From the NCBI GenBank assembly GCA_964270895.1, contig OZ185444.1: a DNA stretch of 64,000 nt. One strand, 5' to 3'. The notes under the pieces were generated by a model. It made no database searches, was not told the origin of the DNA, and saw nothing but the letters and a program-made list of their open reading frames with translations. Positions 5,301-63,829 of the stretch are shown in pieces. Numbering within the stretch: the stretch's first letter is position 1; each line of letters begins with the position of its first letter. The DNA comes from Podarcis filfolensis. Lineage: Eukaryota. The position numbers and the translations under genes were made by a program.

Positions 5301-5940
5301 CAGTAATTCTTTAATTCTTTCAACTCAGATTCTATGATACAAAAACTATCCCAGGCCAGCCTTTATCTAAGATATAATGTGATTGTTTAATGGGGAAGGA
5401 AAAGTGGATTTTGATGTCTGGTATTGGTAAAAAAAAGGGACACGGGTGGCGCTGTGGGTTAAAACCACAGAGCCTAGGACTTGCTGATCAGAAGGTTGGT
5501 GGTTCGAATCCCCGCGATGGGGTGAGCTCCCGTTGCTCAGTCCCTGCTCCTGCCAACCTAGCAGTTCGAAAGCACGTCAAAGTGCAAGTAGATAAATAGG
5601 TACTGCTCCGGCGGGAGGGTAAACGGCGTTTTGGTGCGCTGCTCTGGTTCACCAGAAGCGGCTTAGTCATGCTGGCCACATGACCTGGAAGCTGTCTGTG
5701 GACAAACGCCGACTCCCTCGGCCCATAGAGCGAGATGAGCGCCGCTACCCCAGAGTCGGTCACGACTGGACCTTTACCTTTACCTATTGGTAAAAAGGTA
5801 TTGGTTGCAAAAGAGGAGAGCCAGTGTGATGTTGGGGGTCAGAGCAATCTTCTCTAGCCTGGTGCCCCCCAGATGGTGTGGGACTCCAGCTCCCATCAGC
5901 CTCAGCCAGCATGGCCAGTGGCCAAGGATGATGGGAGCTG
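5301..5940 (+). repeat. Local duplication, copy A (interrupted by the Sauria SINE)
   Basis: 5301-5433 plus 5797-5940 aligns with 8048-8330; about 12 mismatches in the central ~125 bp. Confidence 0.85.
5437..5784 (+). mobile_element. Sauria SINE, near full length
   Basis: GGGACACGGGTGGCGCTGTGGG head, B box GGTTCGAATCCC, (ACCTTT)n tail; 12-bp TSD TATTGGTAAAAA at 5422-5433 and 5785-5796. Confidence 0.95.
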
Positions 5941-16575: not shown

Positions 16576-16614
<39 letters not shown>

Positions 16615-16750
16615 AATTTGTATACCACCCTTCATTTGAATATTCCAGGGCAGTTGACAACAGAAAAATACAAAATGAGAATACACAATAAAACAAAAAC
16701 AAACCAATTACTTTCCTCCCACAAACACATTTAAAAAGCTATAGAATGTT
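16576..16750 (-). mobile_element. L2 LINE 3' end with (AAT)n tail (left part, split by the 16751-17719 insert)
   Basis: (TAT)n then AAATTTGTATACCACCCTTC...CCAGGGCAGTTGAC; colinear with the uninterrupted L2 end at 63634-63829. Confidence 0.85.
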
Positions 16751-17719
16751 AAAGCCTATTCTCCTCCCAGGAGGGGAGGGGTTGTGATTGGGAGATGATT
16801 CCCGCATCATGCAGGGGGCGCTCCGCCCCCTGCTTCAACTCCAGGGCTGGCGCCACGCCCCTCCCCAGTTGGGCACCCAATAGGGAAGCTCGACGGGATG
16901 TGGCTTGCTGCTCAAACGCAGCCGCGCCAACGATCCCCACCATTGCACACACATTTATCTAAAGAGAGTGGAGGGTGGGTGACTCGAAGAAAATGTGTGT
17001 GCAATGGTGGGGATCGCTGGCCACACCTTGTCGGGGAAGGCGATGGCCACACCTTGCCACCCGAAACACCAACAACACATTCCAATGCCTAACCACCACC
17101 CAAGCCAAAAGGCTCGACGCCAATACCCTCACAGCTGCAACCAATCCCTAAGACTATTGGATATGTTAGCCAGCCATATGTTGTTTCCGCGATCTGAAAG
17201 ATGAACACCGTCATCCCGGAATAGGGTCTGGTCGCCAATCTGGATATCATCATGAGATATAACTAGGCCATTCATAAAACGCACTTTGCGCGCTACCGCG
17301 CGATTCAAGAGTTTCCTGGATTTCTCGGTGGTTAGGCATTGGAATGTGTTGTTGGTGTTTTGGGTGGCAAGGTGTGGCCATCGCCTTCCCCGACAATTTT
17401 GGGTATTCCGCTAAAGGAATCCGGCGGTCGTGGATCCTGTCCGATGCCCGTGTGGCGGGGGGCCATGGCACGACCCTCGGTGACATCAGGAGAGATCCTA
17501 TAGTTGTATTAGCATCAACAGGCTCCCCCTACTGGTGGTTAACCCCTCCTCAGACTCACCCCTCTACGAGTGGGTGGAGTCTAATGTTCCGTGGTCCAAT
17601 GCCTAAGCCAATACCTTCTCACATGCTGTAATCAATAAAGTTGTGGCCTTTTCCTTACCCATTAACCTTACATTCTGTGTCCACGTGTCTTTATTCCCCA
17701 AGCGGGGATCGGGTCCTCG
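16751..17719. mobile_element. Rearranged Ngaro/DIRS-like (tyrosine-recombinase retrotransposon) derivative
   Basis: CpG-rich insert in L2 with no TSD; contains an SGNH-hydrolase C-terminal fragment, nested inverted repeats, and AATAAAG at 17634-17640 near the right end. Confidence 0.65.
17129..17326 (-). pseudogene. C-terminal 65 aa of an SGNH/GDSL esterase domain (transposon-borne, 5'-truncated)
   Basis: Open frame without a start codon: EKSRKLLNRAVARKVRFMNGLVISHDDIQIGDQTLFRDDGVHLSDRGNNIWLANISNSLRDWLQL*. DGVHLS is the catalytic DxxH block followed by the usual terminal helix. Confidence 0.8.
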
Positions 17720-18199
17720 AATCACAATCAGTCAAACTCCTGGTTAAAGAGAAATGTTTTTGCTTGGTGCCTAAAGATATGTAATGCTGGTGCCAGGTAA
17801 ACTTCCCTGGGAAGAACATTCCGCAAATGGGGAGCCACTGCAGCAAAGGCCCATTCTCGTGTGGCCACCCTTTGGCACGCTTGTGGAGGAGGCCCACAAA
17901 GAAGGACCTCAGATGGTGATCACAGGATCTAGATCAGTTCTTATGGGGAGAGGTGGTCCTTGAGGTATTGCAGTCCTGAGCCATTTGGGGTTTTATAGGT
18001 CAACGCCAACACTTTGAATGGGGCCCAGAAACTAATTGACAGTCAGTGCAGTTGGGCCAGGCTTGGTGCAATATGCTCAAACTGTCTTGTCCCAGTCAGC
18101 CACCTGACCACCAAATTCTGAAAGAGCAGAGTTTACTGCATTGTCTTCAGAGGCAACCCTATGTATAATGCATTGCAGTAATCTAACCTAGAGGTTGCC
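17720..18199 (-). mobile_element. L2 LINE ORF2 3' region (continuation of 16576-16750)
   Basis: CCTGGTTAAAGAGAAATGTTTT...GGGGAGCCACTGCAG...GCATTGCAGTAATCTAACCTAGAGG, typical of the L2 reverse strand. Confidence 0.85.
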
Positions 18200-18481
18200 T
18201 GTTATATCCCGCTGAGGCAGAGAAGGGCTCACAGGAGTCCAGATACTCAGGTTTCCAAAGCAAGCTGTCCACACTACTAGGTTGATTAGGTCATAGTGGT
18301 TTATTTAAAGGAAAAGCAAACTGACAACAATAGGTCTGAAGGCTCCCTCCTTGCTTCCAGCACACTGTGGGACAGACACCACAGCAAGGAGATGGCTTGT
18401 CCGCGCCTGAGCACTGGAGCAAATGCTTTTTATACAGTGGAGCAGCCCACAGGTGGCCATGATCTCCACCATGCCCAAGGT
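18200..18481 (-). mobile_element. Putative LTR fragment (R/U5 side)
   Basis: Minus strand has TATAAAAAGC (18425-18434), AATAAA (18300-18305) and ends ...TAACA at 18200. The other end and a TSD were not found. Confidence 0.35.
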
Positions 18482-18493
18482 TTCATGCAGGTA

Positions 18494-18844
18494 AAGGTAA
18501 AGGTACCCCTGATCATTAGGTCCAGTTGCGGATGACTCTGGGGTTGCGGCGCTCATCTCGCTTTATTGGCTGAGGGAGCCGGCGTACAGCTTCCGGGTCA
18601 TGTGGCCAGCATGACTAAGCCGCTTCTGGCGAACCAAAGCAGTGCACGGAAATGCCATTTACCTTCCTGCCAGAGTGGTACCTATTTATCTACTTGTACT
18701 TTGACGTGCTTTCGAACTGCTAGCTTGACAGGAGCAGGGACCGAGCAACGGGAGCTGACCCCGTTGCGGGGATTCAAACTGCCGACCTTCTGATCGGCAA
18801 GCCCTAGGCTCTGTGGTTCAAACCACAGCGCCACCTGCGTCCCT
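18494..18844 (-). mobile_element. Sauria SINE, full length
   Basis: Reverse complement of the Sauria head/B box/(ACCTTT)n tail; TSD TTCATGCAGGTA (18482-18493) / TTCCTGCAGGTA (18846-18857). Confidence 0.95.
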
Positions 18845-19301
18845 CTTCCTGCAGGTAGCTATTGCTCTAATTAGGTCTGGAGCCTAGTTTCCCACACCCA
18901 TGGATGTGGGTAGCTCCCTTCCTTGAGCAGGTCAATGCTTTCCAAGTGTGTTGCATGAAAGCTTAGCACTACAGCTGCCACCCATTGTGATGTTATCTTG
19001 AGTATTCAGCTGGTGCTAGCAAAGCTCCTGGAACAACTCACCTATGATTCAATACAGTCGCCAGAGCATAGACAATCGTAGTTAGGCTGTCCCTGTACAG
19101 ATAGGGATACAGCTGGGCTGCCAGCTGAAGCTGATGGAAGGCACTCTGCACCACTGAGGCCACGTTGCAGTAATCTAACCTAGAAGTTAAATATATATAA
19201 ATAGAATAAAGCATTAGAAATAGTCATCCAAATTAGCAGTCTTATTGCTTCCAGAGGAGATCCAGCTTTAACTTTCTTCTTAGATGTGACTCTCAGTAGG
19301 T

Positions 19302-30844: not shown

Positions 30845-31381
30845 GTTGTTGTTGTTTAGTCATTTAGTCGTGTCCGACTCTTCACGACCCCATGGACCAG
30901 AGCACGCCAGGCACTCCTGTCTTCCACTGCCTCCCGCAGTTTGGTCAAACTCATGCCGGTAGCTTCGAGAACACTGTCCAACCATCTCATCCTCTGTCAT
31001 CCCCTTCTCCTTGTGTCCTCCATCTTTCCCAACATCTTTCCCAGCATCAGGGTCTTTTCCAGGGAGTCTTCTCTTCTCATGATGTGGACAAAGTATTGGA
31101 GCCTTAGCTTCAAGATCTGTCCTTCCAGTGAGTACTCAGGGCTGATTTCCTTAAGAATGGATAGGTTTGATCTTCTTGCAGTCCATGGGACTCTCAAGAG
31201 TCTCCTCCAGCACCATAATTCAAAAGCATCAATTCTTCGGCGATCAGCCTTCTTGATGGTCCAGCTCTCACTTCCATACATCACTACTGGGAAAACCATA
31301 GCTTTAACTATATGGACCTTTGTTGGCAAGGTGATGTCTCTGCTTTTTAAGATGCTGTCTAGGTTTGTCATTGCTTTTCTC
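30845..31381 (-). mobile_element. BovB (RTE) LINE 3' fragment
   Basis: ORF 30997..31386 (KAMVFPVVMYGSESWTIKKADRRRIDAFELWCWRRLLRVPWTARRSN) is the BovB ORF C-terminus; (AAC)n tail; TSD ATACTAGT(T)TAGTAT at 30830-30844 / 31387-31400. Confidence 0.95.
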
Positions 31382-31473
31382 TTCATATACTAGTTAGTAT
31401 ATGAAGTAGTTACGGGCCACAGAGTTCTGTTGCCATGTCCCCTCTTCTCCTGAGAGGGAGGAAGTCAGGTTTG

Positions 31474-32856
31474 TGTCATGTTGGACACAGAGGAATGGTG
31501 TGAGGAACCAAAGGAAGAAGGTTCAGAACCTGTGGAGTGGTGGTGGTGGGATGATGATGAGTGGTCTGAGGGAGAAGACTGGGAAGAGGAGGTGTCAGAA
31601 GCTGAAGGGATAACAAGGCTTGGTGAGCTGGGAGAGAGAAGTCCAGAATCAGAAGCTGAAGCTGGCAAGTTGGAAGAGAGAGGTCAAGAGGCAGAGAGGA
31701 GTCAGGCTAGTGAAAGGTCGTGGGTGTCTTTCCCTCCTGCTGTGACAAGCTTCCCCACCATCTCCCAGAACCAGAAGAGGCATGCCAAGGATTAAGACTT
31801 TATGGGAGATGATCTATAATGAAATGAAAAAGGTATTTAAATATCCCTTTCTGAAGAAACCAGAGGCCTTTCTCCTGGGCATGGTCGGCCAATTGGTGGC
31901 AAAGAAGGATAGAACTTTCTTTATGTATGCCACAACAGCAGCAAGAATACTTATTGCAAAGTACTGGAAGACACAAGATCTACCCACCCGGGAAGAATGG
32001 CAGATGAAGGTGATGGACTACATGGAACTGGCGGAAATGACGGGCAGAATCCGAGACCAGGGAGAAGAGTTGGTGGAGGAAGATTGGAAGAAATTTAAAG
32101 ACTATTTACAGAAACATTGCAAAATTAATGAATGTTAGAAGGATGTTGGAATGATGTTATGTGGCTTTAGCAGAAATGTTATAAAGGATTTGGGAAAAAC
32201 TGACTGTTAATTGGTGAAAGGAGGGAAAGTAAAGATATATTATATTAAGATAAATTACAGGACAAAAATTTGAAAAGGTGGAAAGGATTTGCTGAAACAG
32301 ATAATCGAACTAGAATACAAAAAAGGGAGGTGTGAGGAGGTTAAGGAAATAAGCTAATGAAAGATAAGTTATGGGAAGATGCGCTGTATTCTTCTTTTTT
32401 TTTGCTTTTTTAATGGATTTTATTTTTTCGTGTTTTTTCTTTCTTTTTCTCATTCTTGTTTTTTCTTTATTGTGATGTGTTGTATTGTTTCTGTTAAAAG
32501 GGTGTTTTTTTTTGTTTTTTCTTTCTGTAACCTTTAAAACTTTAATAAATATTAATTAAAAAAAAAACAGAACCAGAAGAGGCATGAAGAGGGCAGAGAA
32601 GAGACTGGCTACACACAGTCCCAGTCTCTGATTGCTTGGGAAAAGCCCAGGAGAGGAGGAGATATAGACAGCTGTTGGGGAGGTGGGGTCCTTTAGTCTT
32701 GGAAACTGATTTCATGGAGTAAGGCCCACAGAGAGTGAGCTGTGGTGCTCATTAGGCCTGACACTCAGCCAAGTCTGTGGAGATAGTGGTTTTGGTAATA
32801 AAGAGTTAACTCAAAAATTGAACTGTGTGATTTGCTGACCAGCACACTCTGTGACA
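31474..32856 (+). mobile_element. Solo LTR (probably Gypsy/Ty3), ~581 bp after removing the nested L1
   Basis: TGTCA...TGACA termini; perfect 5-bp TSD GTTTG (31469-31473, 32857-32861); AATAAAGAGTTAAC near the 3' end. Confidence 0.9.
31785..32567 (+). mobile_element. 5'-truncated L1 nested in the solo LTR
   Basis: ORF2 C-terminus (ORF 31782..32138), 3' UTR, AATAAA and poly(A); perfect 19-bp TSD CAGAACCAGAAGAGGCATG (31766-31784, 32568-32586). Confidence 0.95.
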
Positions 32857-34535: not shown

Positions 34536-35957
34536 TACAACGATGACAATTACACTTAGAACTGGAATTAGAACATTATATGCAGCACAGCAAACAACCT
34601 AATAACTGCACCAGTAGCAGATGATGGAGTTGGGGGCGGCACTTAGCTGGGAGGAGTAAGGTGGCAGGGACATTGGCGTTGTGCAGACACACTGACAGGA
34701 ATGCCATATTGGCTCCACCAATGCCTTTGCACAGCATGGACCTTCCTACTGCCTTGCTTTCCTTCCTATAAGCAGCAGTGATGCTGTCGGATAAGCATTG
34801 CCACCCGACTCTACTGTCTGCTACTGAACTCCATGGCATTCTGGTGTCCAGCATGGCTCTCATTATCCCTCAAAAGCATGGGTAAATAAAAGCACCTTTA
34901 GCTGGTGTCAAAAGGTTACCAATGATTGAGATGAGAGGGAGTTCCACAGTTGTCATGGCAGGGTAGGAAGCACATCCAAAGAAATCCAGGATCCATTTGT
35001 TTCTTTATGAAACAAAAAGTGAGTATTTTTTTCTCCCTAGTAAGATGACAGACTAGGCACTTAGCAAACGTGGTACAGCAATATGCCATGGAACTCATGC
35101 ATATTGCATGAGGCATTAACTTTATGTAAATTTACCTAAAGTATCGTGTTCTTTTGGGAGGTTTTACATACATTTCTGTCTTTTTTTAAAAAAAAACAAC
35201 CCTCCACTTTTAAAATAATTGTTTCAAATGTCTTTAATATAATTCCAAATAATGATGATTGGTAAAATCTAAATTTATTTTACATTAGGAATCTTAATTT
35301 AAAATGCAAGCTACAACACCTGCATTCAGAAGTATTTTCTAATCAAATGCTAGTAATAACCAGGCAATAGGAAACTTTTTTTTTAAAGAAGATGATTAAA
35401 TCCTTTTTATAATTCCGCACACTAGATAGATACAACATATGAAAACAGCAAAGCTATGCAGGGCATGGAATGGAAGCTTCTTTTTGCCTATTTAATTCTG
35501 CTGATTACATTCATTGTCATCAAACAACCATAAATCATTTCCTAGTATTCAAACAATTGTCACAAAGAGGTCCCTGTCAACTCAGTGAATTTGTTTTGCA
35601 TGATATAAAAGAAAACAGGAGAACTTGGCCAGAATGAATGGGCTGTATGAAGGATTGTTGTGAAGTTTGATTATGTGCTTCCCATTAAAGTAACAATGAA
35701 AACCCCATATCAGATGTTTTAAAACTGCATTTGTGGATGGGGATATGCCATCATGTGTGCTGACAGCCTCAAATACCCCTGCCTTTCCTACAGGGAAGGT
35801 TTCGGGGGGGATTGCAAGCCTTTTTGGCCAAACATGGTTTCAATTCTCACAACTGGGCACCCTGATCACAGGGAGAATTGTAACCACGTCCTCTTTAGTG
35901 ATACAATGTAATAATGCCTGAACAGGGCTAAAGTCTTATACAGAAGTCCTAACCATG

Positions 35958-36296
35958 AGAGTCCCATGGACTGCAAGAAGATCAAACCTAGCCATTCTTA
36001 AGGAAATCAGCCCCGAGTGCTCACTGGAAGGACAGATTGTGAAGCTGAGGCTCCAGTACTTCGGCCACCTCATGAGAAGAGAAGACTCCCTGGAAAAGTC
36101 CCTTATGCTGGGAAAGATGGAGGGCACAAGGAGAAGGGGACGGCAGAGGACGAGATGGTTGGACAGTGTTCTCGAAGCTACCAGCATGAGTTTGACCAAA
36201 CTGCGGGAGGTAGTGGAAGACAGAAGTGCCTGGCGTGCTCTGGTCCATGGGGTCACGAAGAGTCGGACACGACTAAACGACTAAACAACAACAACA
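35958..36296 (+). mobile_element. BovB (RTE) LINE 3' fragment
   Basis: RVPWTARRSNL...GRQRTRWLDSV...WRALVHGVTKSRTRLND*; (AAC)n tail; 7-bp TSD AACCATG (35951-35957, 36297-36303). Confidence 0.95.
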
Positions 36297-38309
36297 AACC
36301 ATGTTTACTCCTACAGAATTCAATGAGGCTTACTCCCATGAAAATGGAGTTAGAATTGCTGCTGAGTACACTATTACATGAGTGTAATACTTTGATCTGC
36401 CCTCTTGAGGGCTGACCAAGCATGACATGGGAGATCCCTCAGAAGGAAATAATGCAAAAGATTACCAATTGCTTTTTTAACCTGGTAAAATTTTGAAAGA
36501 GTTTGCAGTGCTCCAGGGGATGAGGATTGTGACCTGATTTGGGAGTGGGACAGGGAAAGCCTGCTGTTTTTAGAAAATAATCCTTTCATCTACCTAAAAG
36601 TACACTTGCAAAATTTGCACTTATATTTTACAACCAAATGACTGCTTTTAGAAGTGAGCAGTTTAGTCACTGTATAATAGGCAGGACATTTTGACTGGTT
36701 TAAGGCCACCGAGACTTTGACTAAACGTACCTTTAGTCAAAGTCTCCCCAGCCCCACTTCACAGGGATTTACACTAAAGAAGCCAGGCATGTGTGGTAGC
36801 ACTATAACTAATAAAATATGTCTAAGTGGCAGATTGAATCGTATGGAAACGGGGAAATCTTCACATATCACATTTGTTCAATTTGACAGTGATTTCTTGT
36901 GTTTTCTCCATGTCCCTCTTACAGGTTTCCACTGTGGATTCTGAGGTACATTTTACTGCTGGATTTCCTGTTTAAATTTAAATGCCACATTGCAAGTCAG
37001 TATTGGGGAAGTATCGTCATTTTAATACCATAGAAGAGCACACATGCAATGGATGAAAACAAGCTGGCTGTTTTTCTTCTTCTTCTTCTTTCTCAAATCT
37101 GTTTCGCACCCTTTTCAGAGATAATCAGAAACAGAAGATTTTGAATAGTTTCCTTGTAATACATTTGGTATCTTGTTAGCTGTTTGTTCTGGGAATGTAG
37201 AAAGATTGCTATTCAAACTATCTTAATTGGAATGCAGTCCATTCAAGTTTGCGTAGCAATATTTCATTTGTTTGGGGAACCACATCACCATCCTCTAACT
37301 ACTCAGATACACCACTTTTTCCAAGTTAAAGTTCCTTTTTCACCTCCTTCCATTCACTTGTAAAATGCTCCTGACATTAGAATCAGAAACTGTGTCTGTA
37401 GGTAGCAACTGCTCTTCAGTCATTCCAGGAGATCAAGACCACTTCTTCTGGGCACCATTATCCAATAATTAAGCTTCCTGAGGTTGGTGTCTAGCCTGGA
37501 CTTATTGAAAGGGCACTAAATACTTGCTGCCTCAGGTCGGTCTTCAATCCATGATGTATTAGTTAACAGTTTGCCACAGGTCTCAGCTTGCTTTTTCCTC
37601 AGCGGCTCTTAGTATTTCTCCATTGTTTTCAGTAGCTGCCTACATGTATGGATTCTTGTCCTGCACTATGAACTGCTTATATGGATATTTTCTCCTTTGG
37701 TCATTGCATAAACCAGGAGTCACCAATCTTTTCAGGCCCACGGGCATATTTGAAAACCCGAGAAACTGTTGTCGGCACTACCCACAAGCTATTACCAAGC
37801 ATGTGGCTACTATAGAGTGCTTCTTTTAAATATAATTTCAGCAGGTGTTGGGGCTGAGGCTGGGGTTACAGAGAGAGGCGGGGGAAGGACCCTGCTGGTA
37901 CCACGGAAGGTCTCTGTTGGTATCTGTGTGCATTGTCAAACTTCTGATAAATCATGACAGGGTGAATACCTAGATGCCAGTTATGAGTTCAAACTTGACT
38001 ATATTCCATGGTTGACAAGATCTTTAAGTCTGAAAGGGCAATTAGGAGAAGAACCATATCCTTCATGATGGTCCACCACCACCAATAAGCAGGGGATCAG
38101 GGCACCACCCCTAGCCAAACCTTGCCACTGTTGCCCTCTGAACCTTGTGTTTGAACTTAGGCTTTTCATGTTGGCCTGAACTGTGATGTCCCCACTCTGT
38201 GTTGCCTGGACAATGAAGAGAGAGTGCTGTCTCTTTCAGTAATCCAGTTTAGTAATCCAGTTGACACTGAATTACAGGCTTAACTTTCTTAATTCAGTGC
38301 TGTGAAGCA

Positions 38310-43255: not shown

Positions 43256-44554
43256 AGGGGAACCTGTGGCCCTCCACATATTGCTGGACTCCACCTTCCA
43301 TCATTCTGTAACCGCTGAGGTCTGCTGCCTAGGGATGATAGGAGTTGGAGTACAACAACTTTTGAAGAGCCACAGGTTTGCCATCCCTATTTTATAGCAA
43401 AAAGGAATATAATGAAAGTTGGCAAACTGCTTATCAGCAGGAAAAACAACAACTGTTCACACACGCTTGGTTGTTATTGTACTCCATGTTGCTCAGCATT
43501 CATGGGGATAAATGACCTAACCATCTTCTAATCAGGGAAGTCGCATGTTTCTGATAATGTACTGTAATCTGCACTTCAGAAAACTTGATTTGAAACACAG
43601 TGTTGCAATTTTGCAAAGAAATTATTCGGCAATGCAGGAAATAATCACTTTAGCATAACCAGCAGATGTTTCTCCTCTCAGTTGTACTGTACAACAGAAG
43701 ATGCAATAAAATAAAATAAAATTGAGGAACAAATGAATTTTCCTTTTGGTCATACTCTTAATCATAATCAATAAAATATTGGAACAATAGTAATACAGCT
43801 CTTCCCCTTGGAGATTTGAGCTGTTAATATCAATACAACAGTCCTGTGAGTTTATCCCAGAATATGTTCCTGGAAACATTTATAAAAAAAATACAGCTTC
43901 AATCAAGACAGTAATGGTATAAACAGGGCAAAGGAAATAGCAGCATTGCAACAGATGCTATTGATTAGATGCCTTAGGGAATATTCCACTTATTTATTTT
44001 AGGTCTAGTCAATGTAAATCAAAAGGCTGTGATGTTGTCAGTGAATACATATCACGAGCAATGTAATCCACTGTGACAGAGCTTACACTTTACTGACACT
44101 GCAGATCATGGCTTGGACATGGAGAAGTCATCTGTAGCAAACTCGGGCATTATAAACAGGGGGAGAACAACCCGATTTCAACCTCTGATTCATTGTGAAC
44201 TATGATACCATTTAAGCTGAAAACATAAGCTGATAGGGTTGCCTTTGGCTTACTGACTAACACATTTGAACTTGGTCCTCAATCATATTTGTGTGTGTGT
44301 TGGGAACTTAGCAGCTCATGTTATATCTGTACAGTAAATCTGCCAGTGCGGTGGTAAATCCTAGAAACAGCAGTGGACACCTAGAAAATACAAGGAACAG
44401 GTTTAAATATGGTTGGCTATCTTTCCAGAAACTGTTGACAACCTGTGACATAAAACTAAATAAAAGCTAGAGAATGATCAAGAATGGGAAGCAGATTCAG
44501 GAGGCTAATGAATGGGCACATCTGCAAGTGAGCTTTCAATGTTTCCATTGTATA

Positions 44555-44898
44555 AAGGTAAAGGGACCCCTGACCATTAGGTCCAGTTGCGGACAACTCT
44601 GGGGTTGCGGCACTCATCTCGCTTTACTGGCCAAGGGAGCTGGTGTATAGCTTATGGGTCATGTGGCCAGCATGACTAAGCCACTTCTGGCAAACCAGAG
44701 CAGCACACGGAAACACTGTTTACCTTCCCACCGGAGCGGTACCTATTTATCTACTTGCACTGGTGTGCTTTCAAACTGCTAGGTTGGCAGGAGCAGGGAC
44801 CGAACAACAGGAGCTCACCCCATTGCGGGGATTCAAACCACTGACCTGATGATCGGCAAGCCCTAGGCTCTGTGGTTTAGACCACAGCACCACCCGTG
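44555..44898 (-). mobile_element. Sauria SINE, full length
   Basis: Reverse complement of the Sauria consensus features; TSD TTTCCATTGTATA (44542-44554) / TTTCCATTCTATA (44899-44911). Confidence 0.95.
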
Positions 44899-54652: not shown

Positions 54653-54998
54653 CGGGACACTGGTGGCGCTGTGGGTTAAACCACAAAGCCTGGGACTTGC
54701 CGATCAGAAGGTTGGCGGTTCGAATCCCCGCGACGGGGTGAGCTCCCATTGCTCGGTCCCTGATCCTGCCAACCTAGCAGTTCAAAAGCACGTCAAAGTG
54801 CAAGTAGATAAATAGGTACCGCTCTGGCCGGAAGGTAAACGGCGTTTCTGTGCACTGTTCTGGTTCTCCAGAAGTGGCTTAGTCATGCTGGCCACATGAC
54901 CTGGAAGCTGTATGCCAGCTCCCTTGGACAATAAAGCGAGATGAGCACCATAACCCCAGAGTCGGCCACGACTGGACCTAATGGTCAGGGTTCCCTTT
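54653..54998 (+). mobile_element. Sauria SINE, full length
   Basis: Head, B box and tail present; TSD ACCACTGTATTAT (54640-54652, 54999-55011). Confidence 0.95.
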
Positions 54999-55190
54999 AC
55001 CACTGTATTATGTTTGGATAATTGGGCTACTTTGAATGCGATCATTTCAAGATGAGTAACAATAAGACAATTACCATCTTGTTTGAAGTCTGCATCATTC
55101 ACTGATGTCCAGTTATCTCTTTTATATTCAGTCCTTCCCATTTTCTTTTATATACAAAATGCTAGGTGACAGGTGTTTGTAGTCTAGTCC

Positions 55191-58256: not shown

Positions 58257-59466
58257 ACATGCAGAGGATCCATGAGGATGTGGCTGCTGACTTGGGTCAG
58301 AAATATCAAAGAAATATTAAGCTGGCCCTGTATATTGTTTGGATCATGATATGAAATACAAAATCATCTGAGGAAGAGACAAAGCTCTGGGATAGAGCAT
58401 GCAATAGTTTCTGTGCCTCAATACCCAGTTATAATTATCATGTAGCAGATTATGTGAAATGCCTCTGTCTGAGACCTCCGAGAACCACTGCCAGTCGGAG
58501 TAGACATATAGTCTGATCTCATGTTGGGAAGCTTCCTATGTTGTTAAGTTCTTTTTTATTATTATTAGCATGTAGGTGGTGCCAAAGACAACTTCCCTAT
58601 GGTGGGTGATCCTATTCCTGTCCATAATGCATATAAATTTCTGCCTCATGGCTCTCTGGGATCATGCTGTGAATCTCCACTTTACATTCCTTGCAGCTTC
58701 TGCATGGAGATTCATAGGCTGATGGTGGAAGTCTACATAGTAAGTACTTCTATATATGACAGCATTTGTGGGATATCAGTCTTCATGCAGAGCAAGGAGG
58801 GGCATTTGTGATGGTTTCCCCATACTTAGCACACGCTCCAGCCCCAAGTCTTTGCAGGAGAAAAGGTATTGTTTGTTCAGAAGTCCATTCCAGCTAATAT
58901 CTCAGCATGTTGTGCTATAATATAACTTGGCTGGATTCAGTAAGTGGAAGTGCTTTTTAATTTAAACTGTAGACAAAGTCAGTATCCCTGTAAACCTTCA
59001 GTCTGGAACAATTTGGAAAGTTTCCTTTGATTTCCTTCCCCGACTTTATTTTTATATATATAAAAACACTGTCTTAATACAGTAACAGTAAAGGAGCTGG
59101 ACCTAGTCAAAAGACTTTGTAAGTAATCCAATTTTGAAACTAGGTGGTGTGATTGAACGATCAAAGCTCTAATAATAGGCTTTTTTCTTATGAAAGGCCA
59201 GAAACTGGGACCATGCCCATCTGTAGTTCATATCAAAGACTGTAAATAATCGGGGAGTGTAAATAATAGTTAAAAATGTTTCACAAGATTTCCCATTGCT
59301 CTTACATGGATGACCTGCAGTCAAAATTGCACACAGCTTCAGAGTGAGATGCTGACGGTTGAAGTTAAAGCAGATTATTGGTCAGGTGGAAGATCATCAT
59401 AAAACAAACATTCTAAAAATGATAAAATAAGATGTCTCAGGAAAGATTCAAAGAAAAGTTCACATG

Positions 59467-60201
59467 ACCCCAGTCAAGCTTGCAAAAATCTATCGTACGC
59501 CCAATAATAAATGCTGGAAATGTAAGGAAACTGAAGGTACTTTCTACCACCTTTGGTGGACGTGCCCAAGGATTAAGGTCTTCTGGGAAATGATCTACAA
59601 TGAAATTAAGAAGGTCCTTAAGTGTACCTTTCATAAGAAACCAGAGGCCTTTCTCCTGGGCATGGTAGGCCAATTGGTGTCAAGGAAAGATAGGACGTTC
59701 TTTATGTATGCTACAACAGCAGCAAGAGTTCTTTTAGCAAAGTATTGGAAGACACAAGAACTACCCATGCTGGAAGAGTGGCAGACGAAGGTGATAGACT
59801 ATATGGGACTAGCCGAGATGACTGGCAGAATCCGCGACCAAGGAAAAGAGATGGTGGAAGAAGATTGGAAGAAATTTAAAGTTTATCTTAAGAACTGTTG
59901 TAAAATCAATGAGTGCTAAAATGTCATGGGTAATGTAAAACAGAATTGCAGTGACAAATAATTGGGTAAGAGAAAAAGGATTAAAGAAAGTGAATTATAA
60001 GTAATTGAAATTAGGGGTTGCTGGAAAAGTTTAAAACAGGGATGCAGAAAAGGGAGGTATGGGGAAGTCGTTGAAACAAGGTTTAAGGAAAAGAGGTTAT
60101 GAAATTATACGTGTTTATATGTTTGTTTGTTTATGTATTGTCAGTTGTATTGTGTTTTAATATATGTTGGAAAATTAATAAAAATTTATATATATATATA
60201 A
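59467..60201 (+). mobile_element. 5'-truncated L1 LINE with an intact ORF2 C-terminus
   Basis: CWKC-x7-H-x4-C zinc knuckle (CWKCKETEGTFYHLWWTC) in ORF 59464..59919; 17-bp TSD AAAGAAAAGTTCACATG (59450-59466, 60202-60218). The ORF's ATG comes from the TSD. Confidence 0.95.
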
Positions 60202-60350: not shown

Positions 60351-60512
60351 ATACTCAAAGTGGCAAACAGCAAAGAAACAGGGATGCATTTCAAACAAAC
60401 ACTACAAAAGCAGTTTCATAATAACACAGCAAAACAATAATGTAGTAACAATTTCATAATAGTGTAGAAAAACAAAAATACAGTAACATACAAAAAACCC
60501 CCACATTTCAAT

Positions 60513-60972
60513 GTTGTTGTTTAGTCGTTTAGTCGTGTCCAACTCTTCGTGACCCCATGGACCAGAGCACGCCAGGCACTTCTGTCTTCCACTGCCTCCC
60601 TCAGTTTGGTCAGACTCATGTTTGTAGCTTCGAGAACACTGTCCAACCATCTCATCCTCTGTCATCCCCTTCTCCTTGTGCCCTCCATCTTTCCCAACAT
60701 CAGGGTCTTTTCCAGGGAGTCTTCTCTTCTCATGATGTGGCCAAAGAATTGGAATCTCAGGTTCAGGATCTTTCCTTCCAATGAGCACTCAAGGCTGATT
60801 TCCTTCAGAATGGAGAGGTTTGATCTTCTTGCAGTCCATGGGACTCTCAAGAGTCTCCTCCAGCACCATAATTCAAAAGCATCAATTCTTTGGTGACCAG
60901 TCTTCTTTATGGTCCTGCTCTCACTTCCATACATCACTACTGGCAAAACCATAGCTTTAACTATACGGACCT
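60513..60972 (-). mobile_element. BovB (RTE) LINE 3' fragment
   Basis: VRIVKAMVLPVVMYGSES...IDAFELWCWRRLLRVPWTARRSN; (AAC)n tail; short TSD TTTCAAT (60506-60512, 60973-60979). Confidence 0.95.
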
Positions 60973-63633: not shown

Positions 63634-63829
63634 TTTGATTATTTTTATTTTATTTCTTGAATTTATATACTGCCCTTTACCTGGAGGTCTCAAGGCGGTC
63701 CACAGAACAAAATTAAAATATAAAAACACAAAATATATAATAAAAATAAAAACAACCCAATAACCTTCCCTCCCCCAAACCCCCCACATCTTAAAAGAGC
63801 ATAGGATGTCAATCAAATCAGCCAAAGCC
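63634..63829 (-). mobile_element. L2 LINE 3' end
   Basis: TTTATATACTGCCCTTTACCTGGAGGTCTCAAGGCGGTCCAC...ATAGGATGTCAATCAAATCAGCCAAAG. Confidence 0.85.

Follow-up and report, generated by a model that had tools for sequence, protein, structure and literature searches.

Ngaro-like elements of Xenopus are described with an SGNH hydrolase ORF that follows the tyrosine recombinase (YR) ORF and precedes the B1-A2-B2 repeats, and DIRS-like elements from that genus with a methyltransferase (PMC9210276). Decayed Ngaro copies are reported as common in Xenopus, the degenerate ones often having lost their split repeats (PMC9210276). Experimental replication data exist for DIRS-1, not for Ngaro. The single-stranded cDNA of DIRS-1 is reported to self-anneal and its circle-junction template to be indispensable, with deletion of this template abolishing retrotransposition; the reverse transcriptase (RT) acts in trans, and integration is thought to use short sequences common with the target (PMC7192593). 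TOC1 of Chlamydomonas, a non-autonomous element of the DIRS order, is a precedent for mobilisation in trans (PMC9940879).

The window analysed here, a stretch of 64,000 nucleotides from Podarcis filfolensis, contained an insert of 969 bases (16751–17719) within the 3' end of an L2-like LINE, which had lost zero bases. The left flank ended with ...ATAGAATGTT at 16750 and the LINE resumed with AATCACAATCAGTCAAA at 17720; an uninterrupted LINE copy at 63801–63826 read ATAGGATGTC directly followed by AATCAAATCAGCCAAA. In local alignments, both flanks were collinear with the copy at 63638–63826 and overlapped in AA only (16751–16752, 17720–17721 and 63811–63812). This single site-spanning LINE copy in the window, used as the empty-site model, runs about 16–26 bases beyond the junction and is 79% identical to the left flank (106/134 aligned bases). 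The junctions and collinear flanks bore out two claims of an earlier sequence-only reading, namely a clean split of the L2-like LINE at 16750/17720 and insertion without a conventional TSD beyond AA, the only bases shared by the junctions and the empty site. Judged against one diverged empty-site model, integration left no true TSD and at most a short shared AA core. The AA dinucleotide is a candidate recombinase crossover core, or a chance match, and the two-base overlap is weak evidence for integration by a recombinase. The ORF2-like frame of the LINE ended at 17728, so that the insert sits just behind its stop. Two host LINE frames had no match in Pfam, and the label L2 is our assumption from ORF2 C-terminal motifs. 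The ends of the insert read AAAGCC...CCTCG. The features of the locus were as follows.

16576–16750, minus strand: 3' end of the presumed L2-like host LINE with its (TAA)n tail (16576–16613), the left flank; aligns to 63638–63810
16751–16752 and 17720–17721, plus strand: AA common to both junctions and the empty site; putative role in integration
16751–16925, plus strand: left terminal segment, 64% GC, strongly folded (fold z −4.1 on plus, −2.1 on minus)
16926–17021, no strand assigned: hairpin with arms 16926–16956 and 16991–17021 (31 nt, 30/31) and a 34-nt loop; from self-alignment, with sub-threshold miRNA look-alikes only in Rfam
17015–17056, plus strand: direct duplication, 17018–17030 equal to 17044–17056 (13 nt exact; 15/16 extended); from self-alignment
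17028–17097, minus strand: inverted copy of a 70-bp segment, with one difference (17063)
17098–17128, minus strand: 31 nt after the SGNH stop, with a small stem-loop; from sequence and fold
17129–17326, minus strand: last 65 codons and stop of an SGNH hydrolase ORF, block V only; 97% to XP_077774336.1
17327–17396, plus strand: the 70-bp segment in right-arm orientation; from self-alignment
17397–17719, plus strand: right arm, 3' untranslated region; pairs with the SGNH end only in plus orientation
17595–17636, plus strand: complementary to the end of SGNH and to what follows its stop; pairs with 17081–17092 and 17119–17145 (minus) and covers the first three AATAAA bases
17634–17639, plus strand: AATAAA, putative poly(A) signal located 80 nt before the right end; from sequence
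17720–18196, minus strand: continuation of the presumed L2-like host LINE; no Pfam match
63638–63826, minus strand: uninterrupted LINE 3' end, the empty-site model; from alignment

The insert contained 47 CpG (observed/expected 0.665), compared with ratios of 0.054 in the left kilobase, 0.145 in the right kilobase and 0.22 in the whole window, and among sliding 969-nt windows the one overlapping the insert most was highest. The sequence-only reading had called the insert CpG-richer than its surroundings and hence young; the first claim was confirmed by these ratios and the second is supported by them. Since a nearby SINE-like element at 18490–18850 even reached 0.715, high CpG is taken as a marker of youth and of nothing rarer. 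Youth was also indicated by the single difference in 70 positions between the inverted copies and by 63/65 residues shared with the closest relative. A second copy of the insert was not found within the 64-kb window.

The same LINE carried another insert of about 965 bp (18200–19164), which starts with TGTT and had no relative in the window outside a nested SINE. It was flanked by a 24-bp duplication (18173–18196 and 19165–19188, 23/24), too long for an LTR-type TSD. The nested CpG-rich SINE-like element (18492–18851), which presumably resembles Sauria SINE, was 85–88% identical to copies at 54654–55001, 44553–44894 and 5433–5773. Open frames at 30860–31393, 35922–36415 and 60402–60896, and at 31746–32138 and 59431–59919, looked like ORF2 C-termini, which we take to be of RTE/Bov-B and L1 type. 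No long host ORF was evident among the window frames of at least 120 aa.

The minus-strand frame at 17129–17326 encoded 65 aa with D39-G-V-H42, in agreement with the earlier report of a frame ending in a DxxH block. The frame stays open to 17410 (93 aa), and homology to relatives ends at 17326. The peptide shows the D-x-x-H followed by a helix that marks an SGNH domain; the D and H of block V were invariant in a 15-sequence alignment and aligned with block V of 4C1B. Blocks I–III (Ser, Gly, Asn) were absent from the fragment and present in relatives (G-H-S, G-E-N-D). With block V only and no catalytic Ser, the fragment is predicted from its sequence to be incapable of enzyme activity. Searched alone, the 65 aa matched 0 Pfam families at E≤10 and no PDB chain, 4C1B included; in an ESM Atlas feature search, 29/30 matches had no common family, and a GDSL cluster at rank 26 (0.91) was a lead only. 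The short length of the peptide explains these misses. The SGNH-model search that had been proposed thus gave no direct Pfam match, an outcome that the earlier reading had formally named as refuting it; the identity as SGNH block V is supported through the relatives of the peptide, which matched Lipase_GDSL_2.

Six of 24 protein-search candidates were 74–97% identical to the peptide, all of them Podarcis gene models, with the C-terminus of Podarcis muralis XP_077774336.1 at 97%. Four of the six matched Lipase_GDSL_2 (one above the gathering score) and two matched Phage_integrase (below it). In the alignment of relatives, recombinase sequence runs straight into SGNH block I. An exhaustive protein search returned 122 relatives; one of its top-10 matches, an unrelated RTX-repeat protein, was dropped before YR sequence was counted and the block II look-alike (see below) was scored. 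The 20 that were looked up included 15 squamates, one Xenopus and one abalone. Pfam found Lipase_GDSL_2 in 38/56 longer relatives, and no PHD, RT or endonuclease family among the matches listed for these 56. YR sequence lay upstream of SGNH in 9/123 other relatives, the 97% match among them, a count that leaves out the query's source and comes from a set in which only 45/124 relatives were at least 250 aa long. Whether a protein shows a YR-SGNH fusion probably depends on the gene model, because the YR and SGNH of Ngaro are separate, overlapping frames. A search for long RT-YR-SGNH fusions gave 11 matches (10 new), with integrase present and RT/RNase H in 0/11 proteins scanned (nine matches from this search and two earlier ones); RT is the domain by which the clade is defined. 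In a rough tree, the peptide was sister to XP_077774336.1 (98/92); with 23 named rows, 66 columns and a bootstrap that had not converged, the tree supports this pairing only.

Block I of the relatives usually read G-H-S or G-S-S rather than G-D-S, which may explain the weak Pfam scores, and the catalytic Ser, Asn, Asp and His were mostly retained. Four gene models joined the SGNH domain to host-type domains, namely lipase M (Podarcis raffonei), VGLL4 (Erythrolamprus), an EF-hand and a CIR N-terminus; these are either exonised Ngaro pieces or annotation artefacts.

YR directly upstream of SGNH in close relatives, together with the layout of Xenopus Ngaro, points to a YR-SGNH source element, probably a lacertid retrotransposon of Ngaro layout. 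The Ngaro-type origin proposed from the sequence therefore stands on its relatives, since it is in them, and not within the window, that a YR ORF lies immediately upstream of SGNH. The source resembles the amphibian elements DIRS-53_XT and DIRS-54_XT, in which the SGNH ORF comes directly after YR and just before the 3' repeats (PMC9210276), and the Xenopus laevis YR+SGNH protein OCT97462.1 was among the matches of the peptide. Unlike these elements as described there, the insert lacks gag, RT/RNase H, YR, A1/A2 (236 bp) and B1/B2 (152 bp), its SGNH piece is inverted between 70-bp copies, and its host is a lacertid. Much closer are four Podarcis muralis models (XP_077774336.1, XP_077792013.1, XP_077781463.1 and XP_077779000.1), which are 78–97% identical over all 65 residues, share the same C-terminus and retain SGNH blocks I–III and part or all of YR, as unannotated models and not curated elements. 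A more distant member of the SGNH superfamily is the ZfL2-1 ORF1p esterase 4C1B, the best solved match of the 15-sequence family profile (E 6e-12), which matched other SGNH enzymes weakly. That esterase lies in a LINE ORF1 upstream of ORF2 (PMC3905857) and is too distant to be matched by the peptide alone.

The internal anatomy of the insert did not fit the simple deletion that had been proposed, an internally deleted element keeping both ends: the SGNH piece was turned around and enclosed by a 70-bp inverted duplication, and the A1/A2 and B1/B2 pairs were both missing. The 70-bp copies (17028–17097 and 17327–17396) were 69/70 identical, differing at a CpG (17063) by a CpG-type transition, and homology to the SGNH relatives stopped exactly at the edge of the right copy. 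Past the 70 bp, the two copies run into different sequence, so that only one of them continues as in the parent and the other leads into a rearrangement. Exact inverted arms reached 35 nt in the tile containing the insert but did not exceed 19 nt in any of the remaining 65 (66 tiles in all), and the whole insert folded as a single strand at a z of about −20. The direct duplication links the hairpin to the inverted block via TGGC and TTG microhomologies, and the hairpin itself is probably a fold-back product; as a miRNA precursor it was rejected, its eight Rfam look-alikes all being far below gathering. The left terminal segment would be the A-type repeat at the 5' end of the element, and the right arm its B-type end. 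The minus strand has an AATAAA of its own at 17690–17695. An 8-mer of the hairpin arms (16931–16938, 17009–17016) recurs beside the right terminus (17704–17711). The duplex of hairpin arm 1 with the 3' end was equalled by 15/1000 shuffles, and this pairing is a possible candidate for a priming site. A plus frame at about 16985–17062, covering hairpin arm 2 and the inverted 70 bp, resembled SGNH block II (W-x-G...R-G-x-R-W) but was rejected as borderline: its score of 1.0 bit fell between the 95th and 99th percentiles for 300 shuffles and short of the 95th percentile for real window segments. Were it real, SGNH coding sequence may be the pairing partner or the origin of the post-stop region.

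The orientation of the SGNH piece was indicated by a long-range helix. Its last codons, the stop and the following bases (17119–17145, minus) were complementary to 17607–17636 (plus), with 25 Watson-Crick and two G.U among 27 pairs and small bulges. The opposite strand assignment turns the two G.U pairs into mismatches, an asymmetry of two positions. The part of the helix outside the duplication was predicted at −49.0 kcal/mol, a value reached by 1/2000 shuffles and 1/2514 window controls, which are optimistic controls as the region was picked after the repeat had been seen; the opposite-strand counterpart reached −27.5 kcal/mol. A second stretch of 12 bp (17081–17092 with 17595–17606) extends the helix beyond the small stem-loop. 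Since the helix forms only with both partners on one RNA, we strongly infer that the SGNH block is inverted relative to the right arm. This fits a parental RNA in the order SGNH, 31 nt, 70 bp and then 17397–17719, ending 80 nt after AATAAA. We are highly confident in the combination of a YR-SGNH origin with an inversion of the SGNH block, which the favoured reading below shares with its two nearest alternatives. The evidence on the left end was mixed. The left 175 nt fold better on the plus strand (strand difference reached by 8/500 shuffles), and this modelled folding favours a plus-oriented 5' end; the duplex of whole segments, equalled by 5/300 shuffles for left (minus) with right (plus) vs 21/300 for left (plus), leaned against it.

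Split direct repeats of the type A1...B1-A2-B2 were absent from the insert, where the longest internal direct match was 13 nt. Searched on both strands, the insert held no internal copy of its left or right end (best 10/15, 15/25 and 21/40) and no B-A junction, the template in cis from which ends would be regenerated. The ends were not DIRS1-like either: the inverted repeats were internal, the best complement of the end 15-mer was 10/15, and the ends were not TTT. Four non-coding frames of the insert matched no Pfam family. In tblastn with 132 retrieved proteins, the left and right segments gave 17 and 12 matches (E<0.05), reversed controls 7 and 17, and five shuffled sets 11–21; as the matches did not exceed the controls, the insert holds no further coding remnant.

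We tentatively favour the reading that the insert is a defective lacertid copy of Ngaro layout, whose pieces were shuffled by template switches while it was being reverse-transcribed and which a recombinase acting in trans afterwards integrated at AA. Reverse transcriptases often switch templates. The plus-strand path would start by copying the left end and would first fold back on itself (31 nt; 16987–17021). A second switch, through TGGC microhomology, would lead onto an opposite-sense template near the 3' region, of which 9 nt would be copied before a third switch slipped back via TTG. Then 299 nt would be copied antisense, from the post-stop region into the SGNH ORF, until a fourth switch at 17326/17327 returned to a sense-giving template, which would be followed as far as the right end. 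The path would thereby drop gag, RT/RNase H, YR and the greater part of SGNH, leaving one A-like and one B-like end. Integration with precise ends into the old L2-like LINE would have been carried out by a recombinase supplied in trans at the shared AA. As an internal B-A junction is lacking, the copy, by analogy with DIRS-1, most likely cannot regenerate its ends, and the insert is most likely a dead, immobile one-off. The most suitable label is that of a damaged copy descended from an element of known kind, not that of a structurally valid Ngaro or a non-autonomous family.

It is possible, though rather unlikely, that a full-length Ngaro inserted first and that host replication or break repair later deleted its interior and wrote the inverted pieces, again leaving a dead one-off. 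All templated pieces adjoin the two deletion breakpoints, with microhomologies of 3–4 bases, and such microhomologies at breakpoint-adjacent templates are a general signature of microhomology-mediated template-switching repair; the missing B-A junction would also be accounted for if the left end had been joined to the last B copy in a single jump. However, a young copy leaves little time for a rare event with four switches. Damage at birth is preferred to later repair in view of the copy's youth and of templates that all belong to the element itself. The two are not separated by sequence alone, and host replication repair could yield the same anatomy.

That the rearranged 969-bp unit was amplified in trans by an autonomous Ngaro, as a mobile non-autonomous family, appears improbable. 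Both ends look precise and CpG is high. TOC1 (PMC9940879), SIRE as A2+B2 of VIPER (PMC6681497) and solo AB repeats (PMC8547959) offer precedents, and the DIRS-1 RT works in trans (PMC7192593). None of these short DIRS-order units, however, is described there with the architecture of the insert. The insert does resemble the solo AB repeats of Cafeteria Ngaro (PMC8547959) and SIRE (PMC6681497), short non-coding units that have an A-type end and a B-type end; as described there, those are free of ORF remnants and are put down to recombination between repeats, whereas the insert has an inverted SGNH block and fold-backs. TOC1 is multi-copy and keeps split direct repeats, unlike the insert, which was present once in the 64-kb window and has none. 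Against mobility stand the lack of both split repeats and a circle-junction template in either orientation, and two weak negatives, namely no second copy in 64 kb and 0 matches (one candidate) among proteins of 51–163 aa searched for the 93-aa junction-spanning frame. A YR motif was not found in the supplements of PMC6681497 (12/13), and passages of PMC3783388 and PMC4350176 gave nothing further on ends or targets. We give even less credence to a mobile non-autonomous Ngaro derivative of about 1 kb that spread without split direct repeats, its fold-back inverted repeats (the 70-bp pair and the 31-bp hairpin) priming or closing the cDNA. If true, the ends would have changed in nature from a Ngaro-type to a DIRS-like logic, and one could learn from this which cis-signals the replication of Ngaro really requires.

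Very improbably, the element lies on the minus strand, with SGNH and 17128–16751 as its natural 3' region and the right arm inverted, or its parent was naturally inverted-repeated. SGNH, the post-stop sequence and the left part are contiguous on the minus strand, that strand carries AATAAA at 17690–17695, and the left (minus)/right (plus) duplex was the rarer one among shuffles (5/300 vs 21/300). But this path crosses two microhomology junctions and a near-perfect hairpin and shows no direct repeats after the stop in that orientation; the SGNH-end helix requires the right arm on the plus strand, and the left end folds better there.

It is hardly credible that the esterase came from another class, be it an L2, CR1 or RTEX ORF1, a Penelope-like element or an LTR element. 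These classes do carry SGNH esterases (PMC3905857, PMC5408684), Penelope-like insertions are reported with inverted structures, often inverted 5'-truncated copies (PMC8557442), the host is an L2, and among solved structures the family profile matches an L2 ORF1 esterase best. However, the closest relatives are YR-linked, and the peptide alone misses 4C1B. An origin as a CR1/L2 ORF1 product, with ORF2 after it and a coiled coil or PHD upstream, was rejected: the relatives carry YR upstream, and what comes after the stop is non-coding rather than an ORF2, given tblastn matches no more numerous than in controls. The insert showed neither the tandem repeat (pLTR) of Penelope-like elements, nor a hammerhead at E≤1, nor a tail. 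A Gypsy/ERV LTR was rejected as well, since the ends AAAGCC...CCTCG are not TG...CA, AA alone is shared, and the insert lacks an LTR pair and a 4–6-bp TSD. Scarcely conceivable, finally, is an assembly or read fold-back artefact: chimeric long reads can yield near-perfect inverted repeats, but here a CpG-type transition distinguishes the two copies, microhomology is present at the junctions, and the LINE is joined without imprecision on both sides.

In the literature searched, no paper naming Ngaro together with Podarcis was found, and a broader search showed nothing on lacertid Ngaro derivatives among the matches listed. Lacertid YR-SGNH elements thus appear little described, and the parent family may already be catalogued, for instance in Repbase or Dfam. 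As a dead copy the insert matters little, since decayed Ngaro copies are reported as common in Xenopus (PMC9210276). It would nonetheless document template switching in four steps within an order for which experimental tests of replication are limited to DIRS-1. The pairing of the SGNH-ORF end with sequence overlapping the right-arm poly(A) signal is a probable cis-element of the parent. With considerable doubt, we suggest that this helix may mask the poly(A) signal in the first B copy, letting transcription reach A2-B2. Reading through the first B copy is a problem for every split-repeat element.
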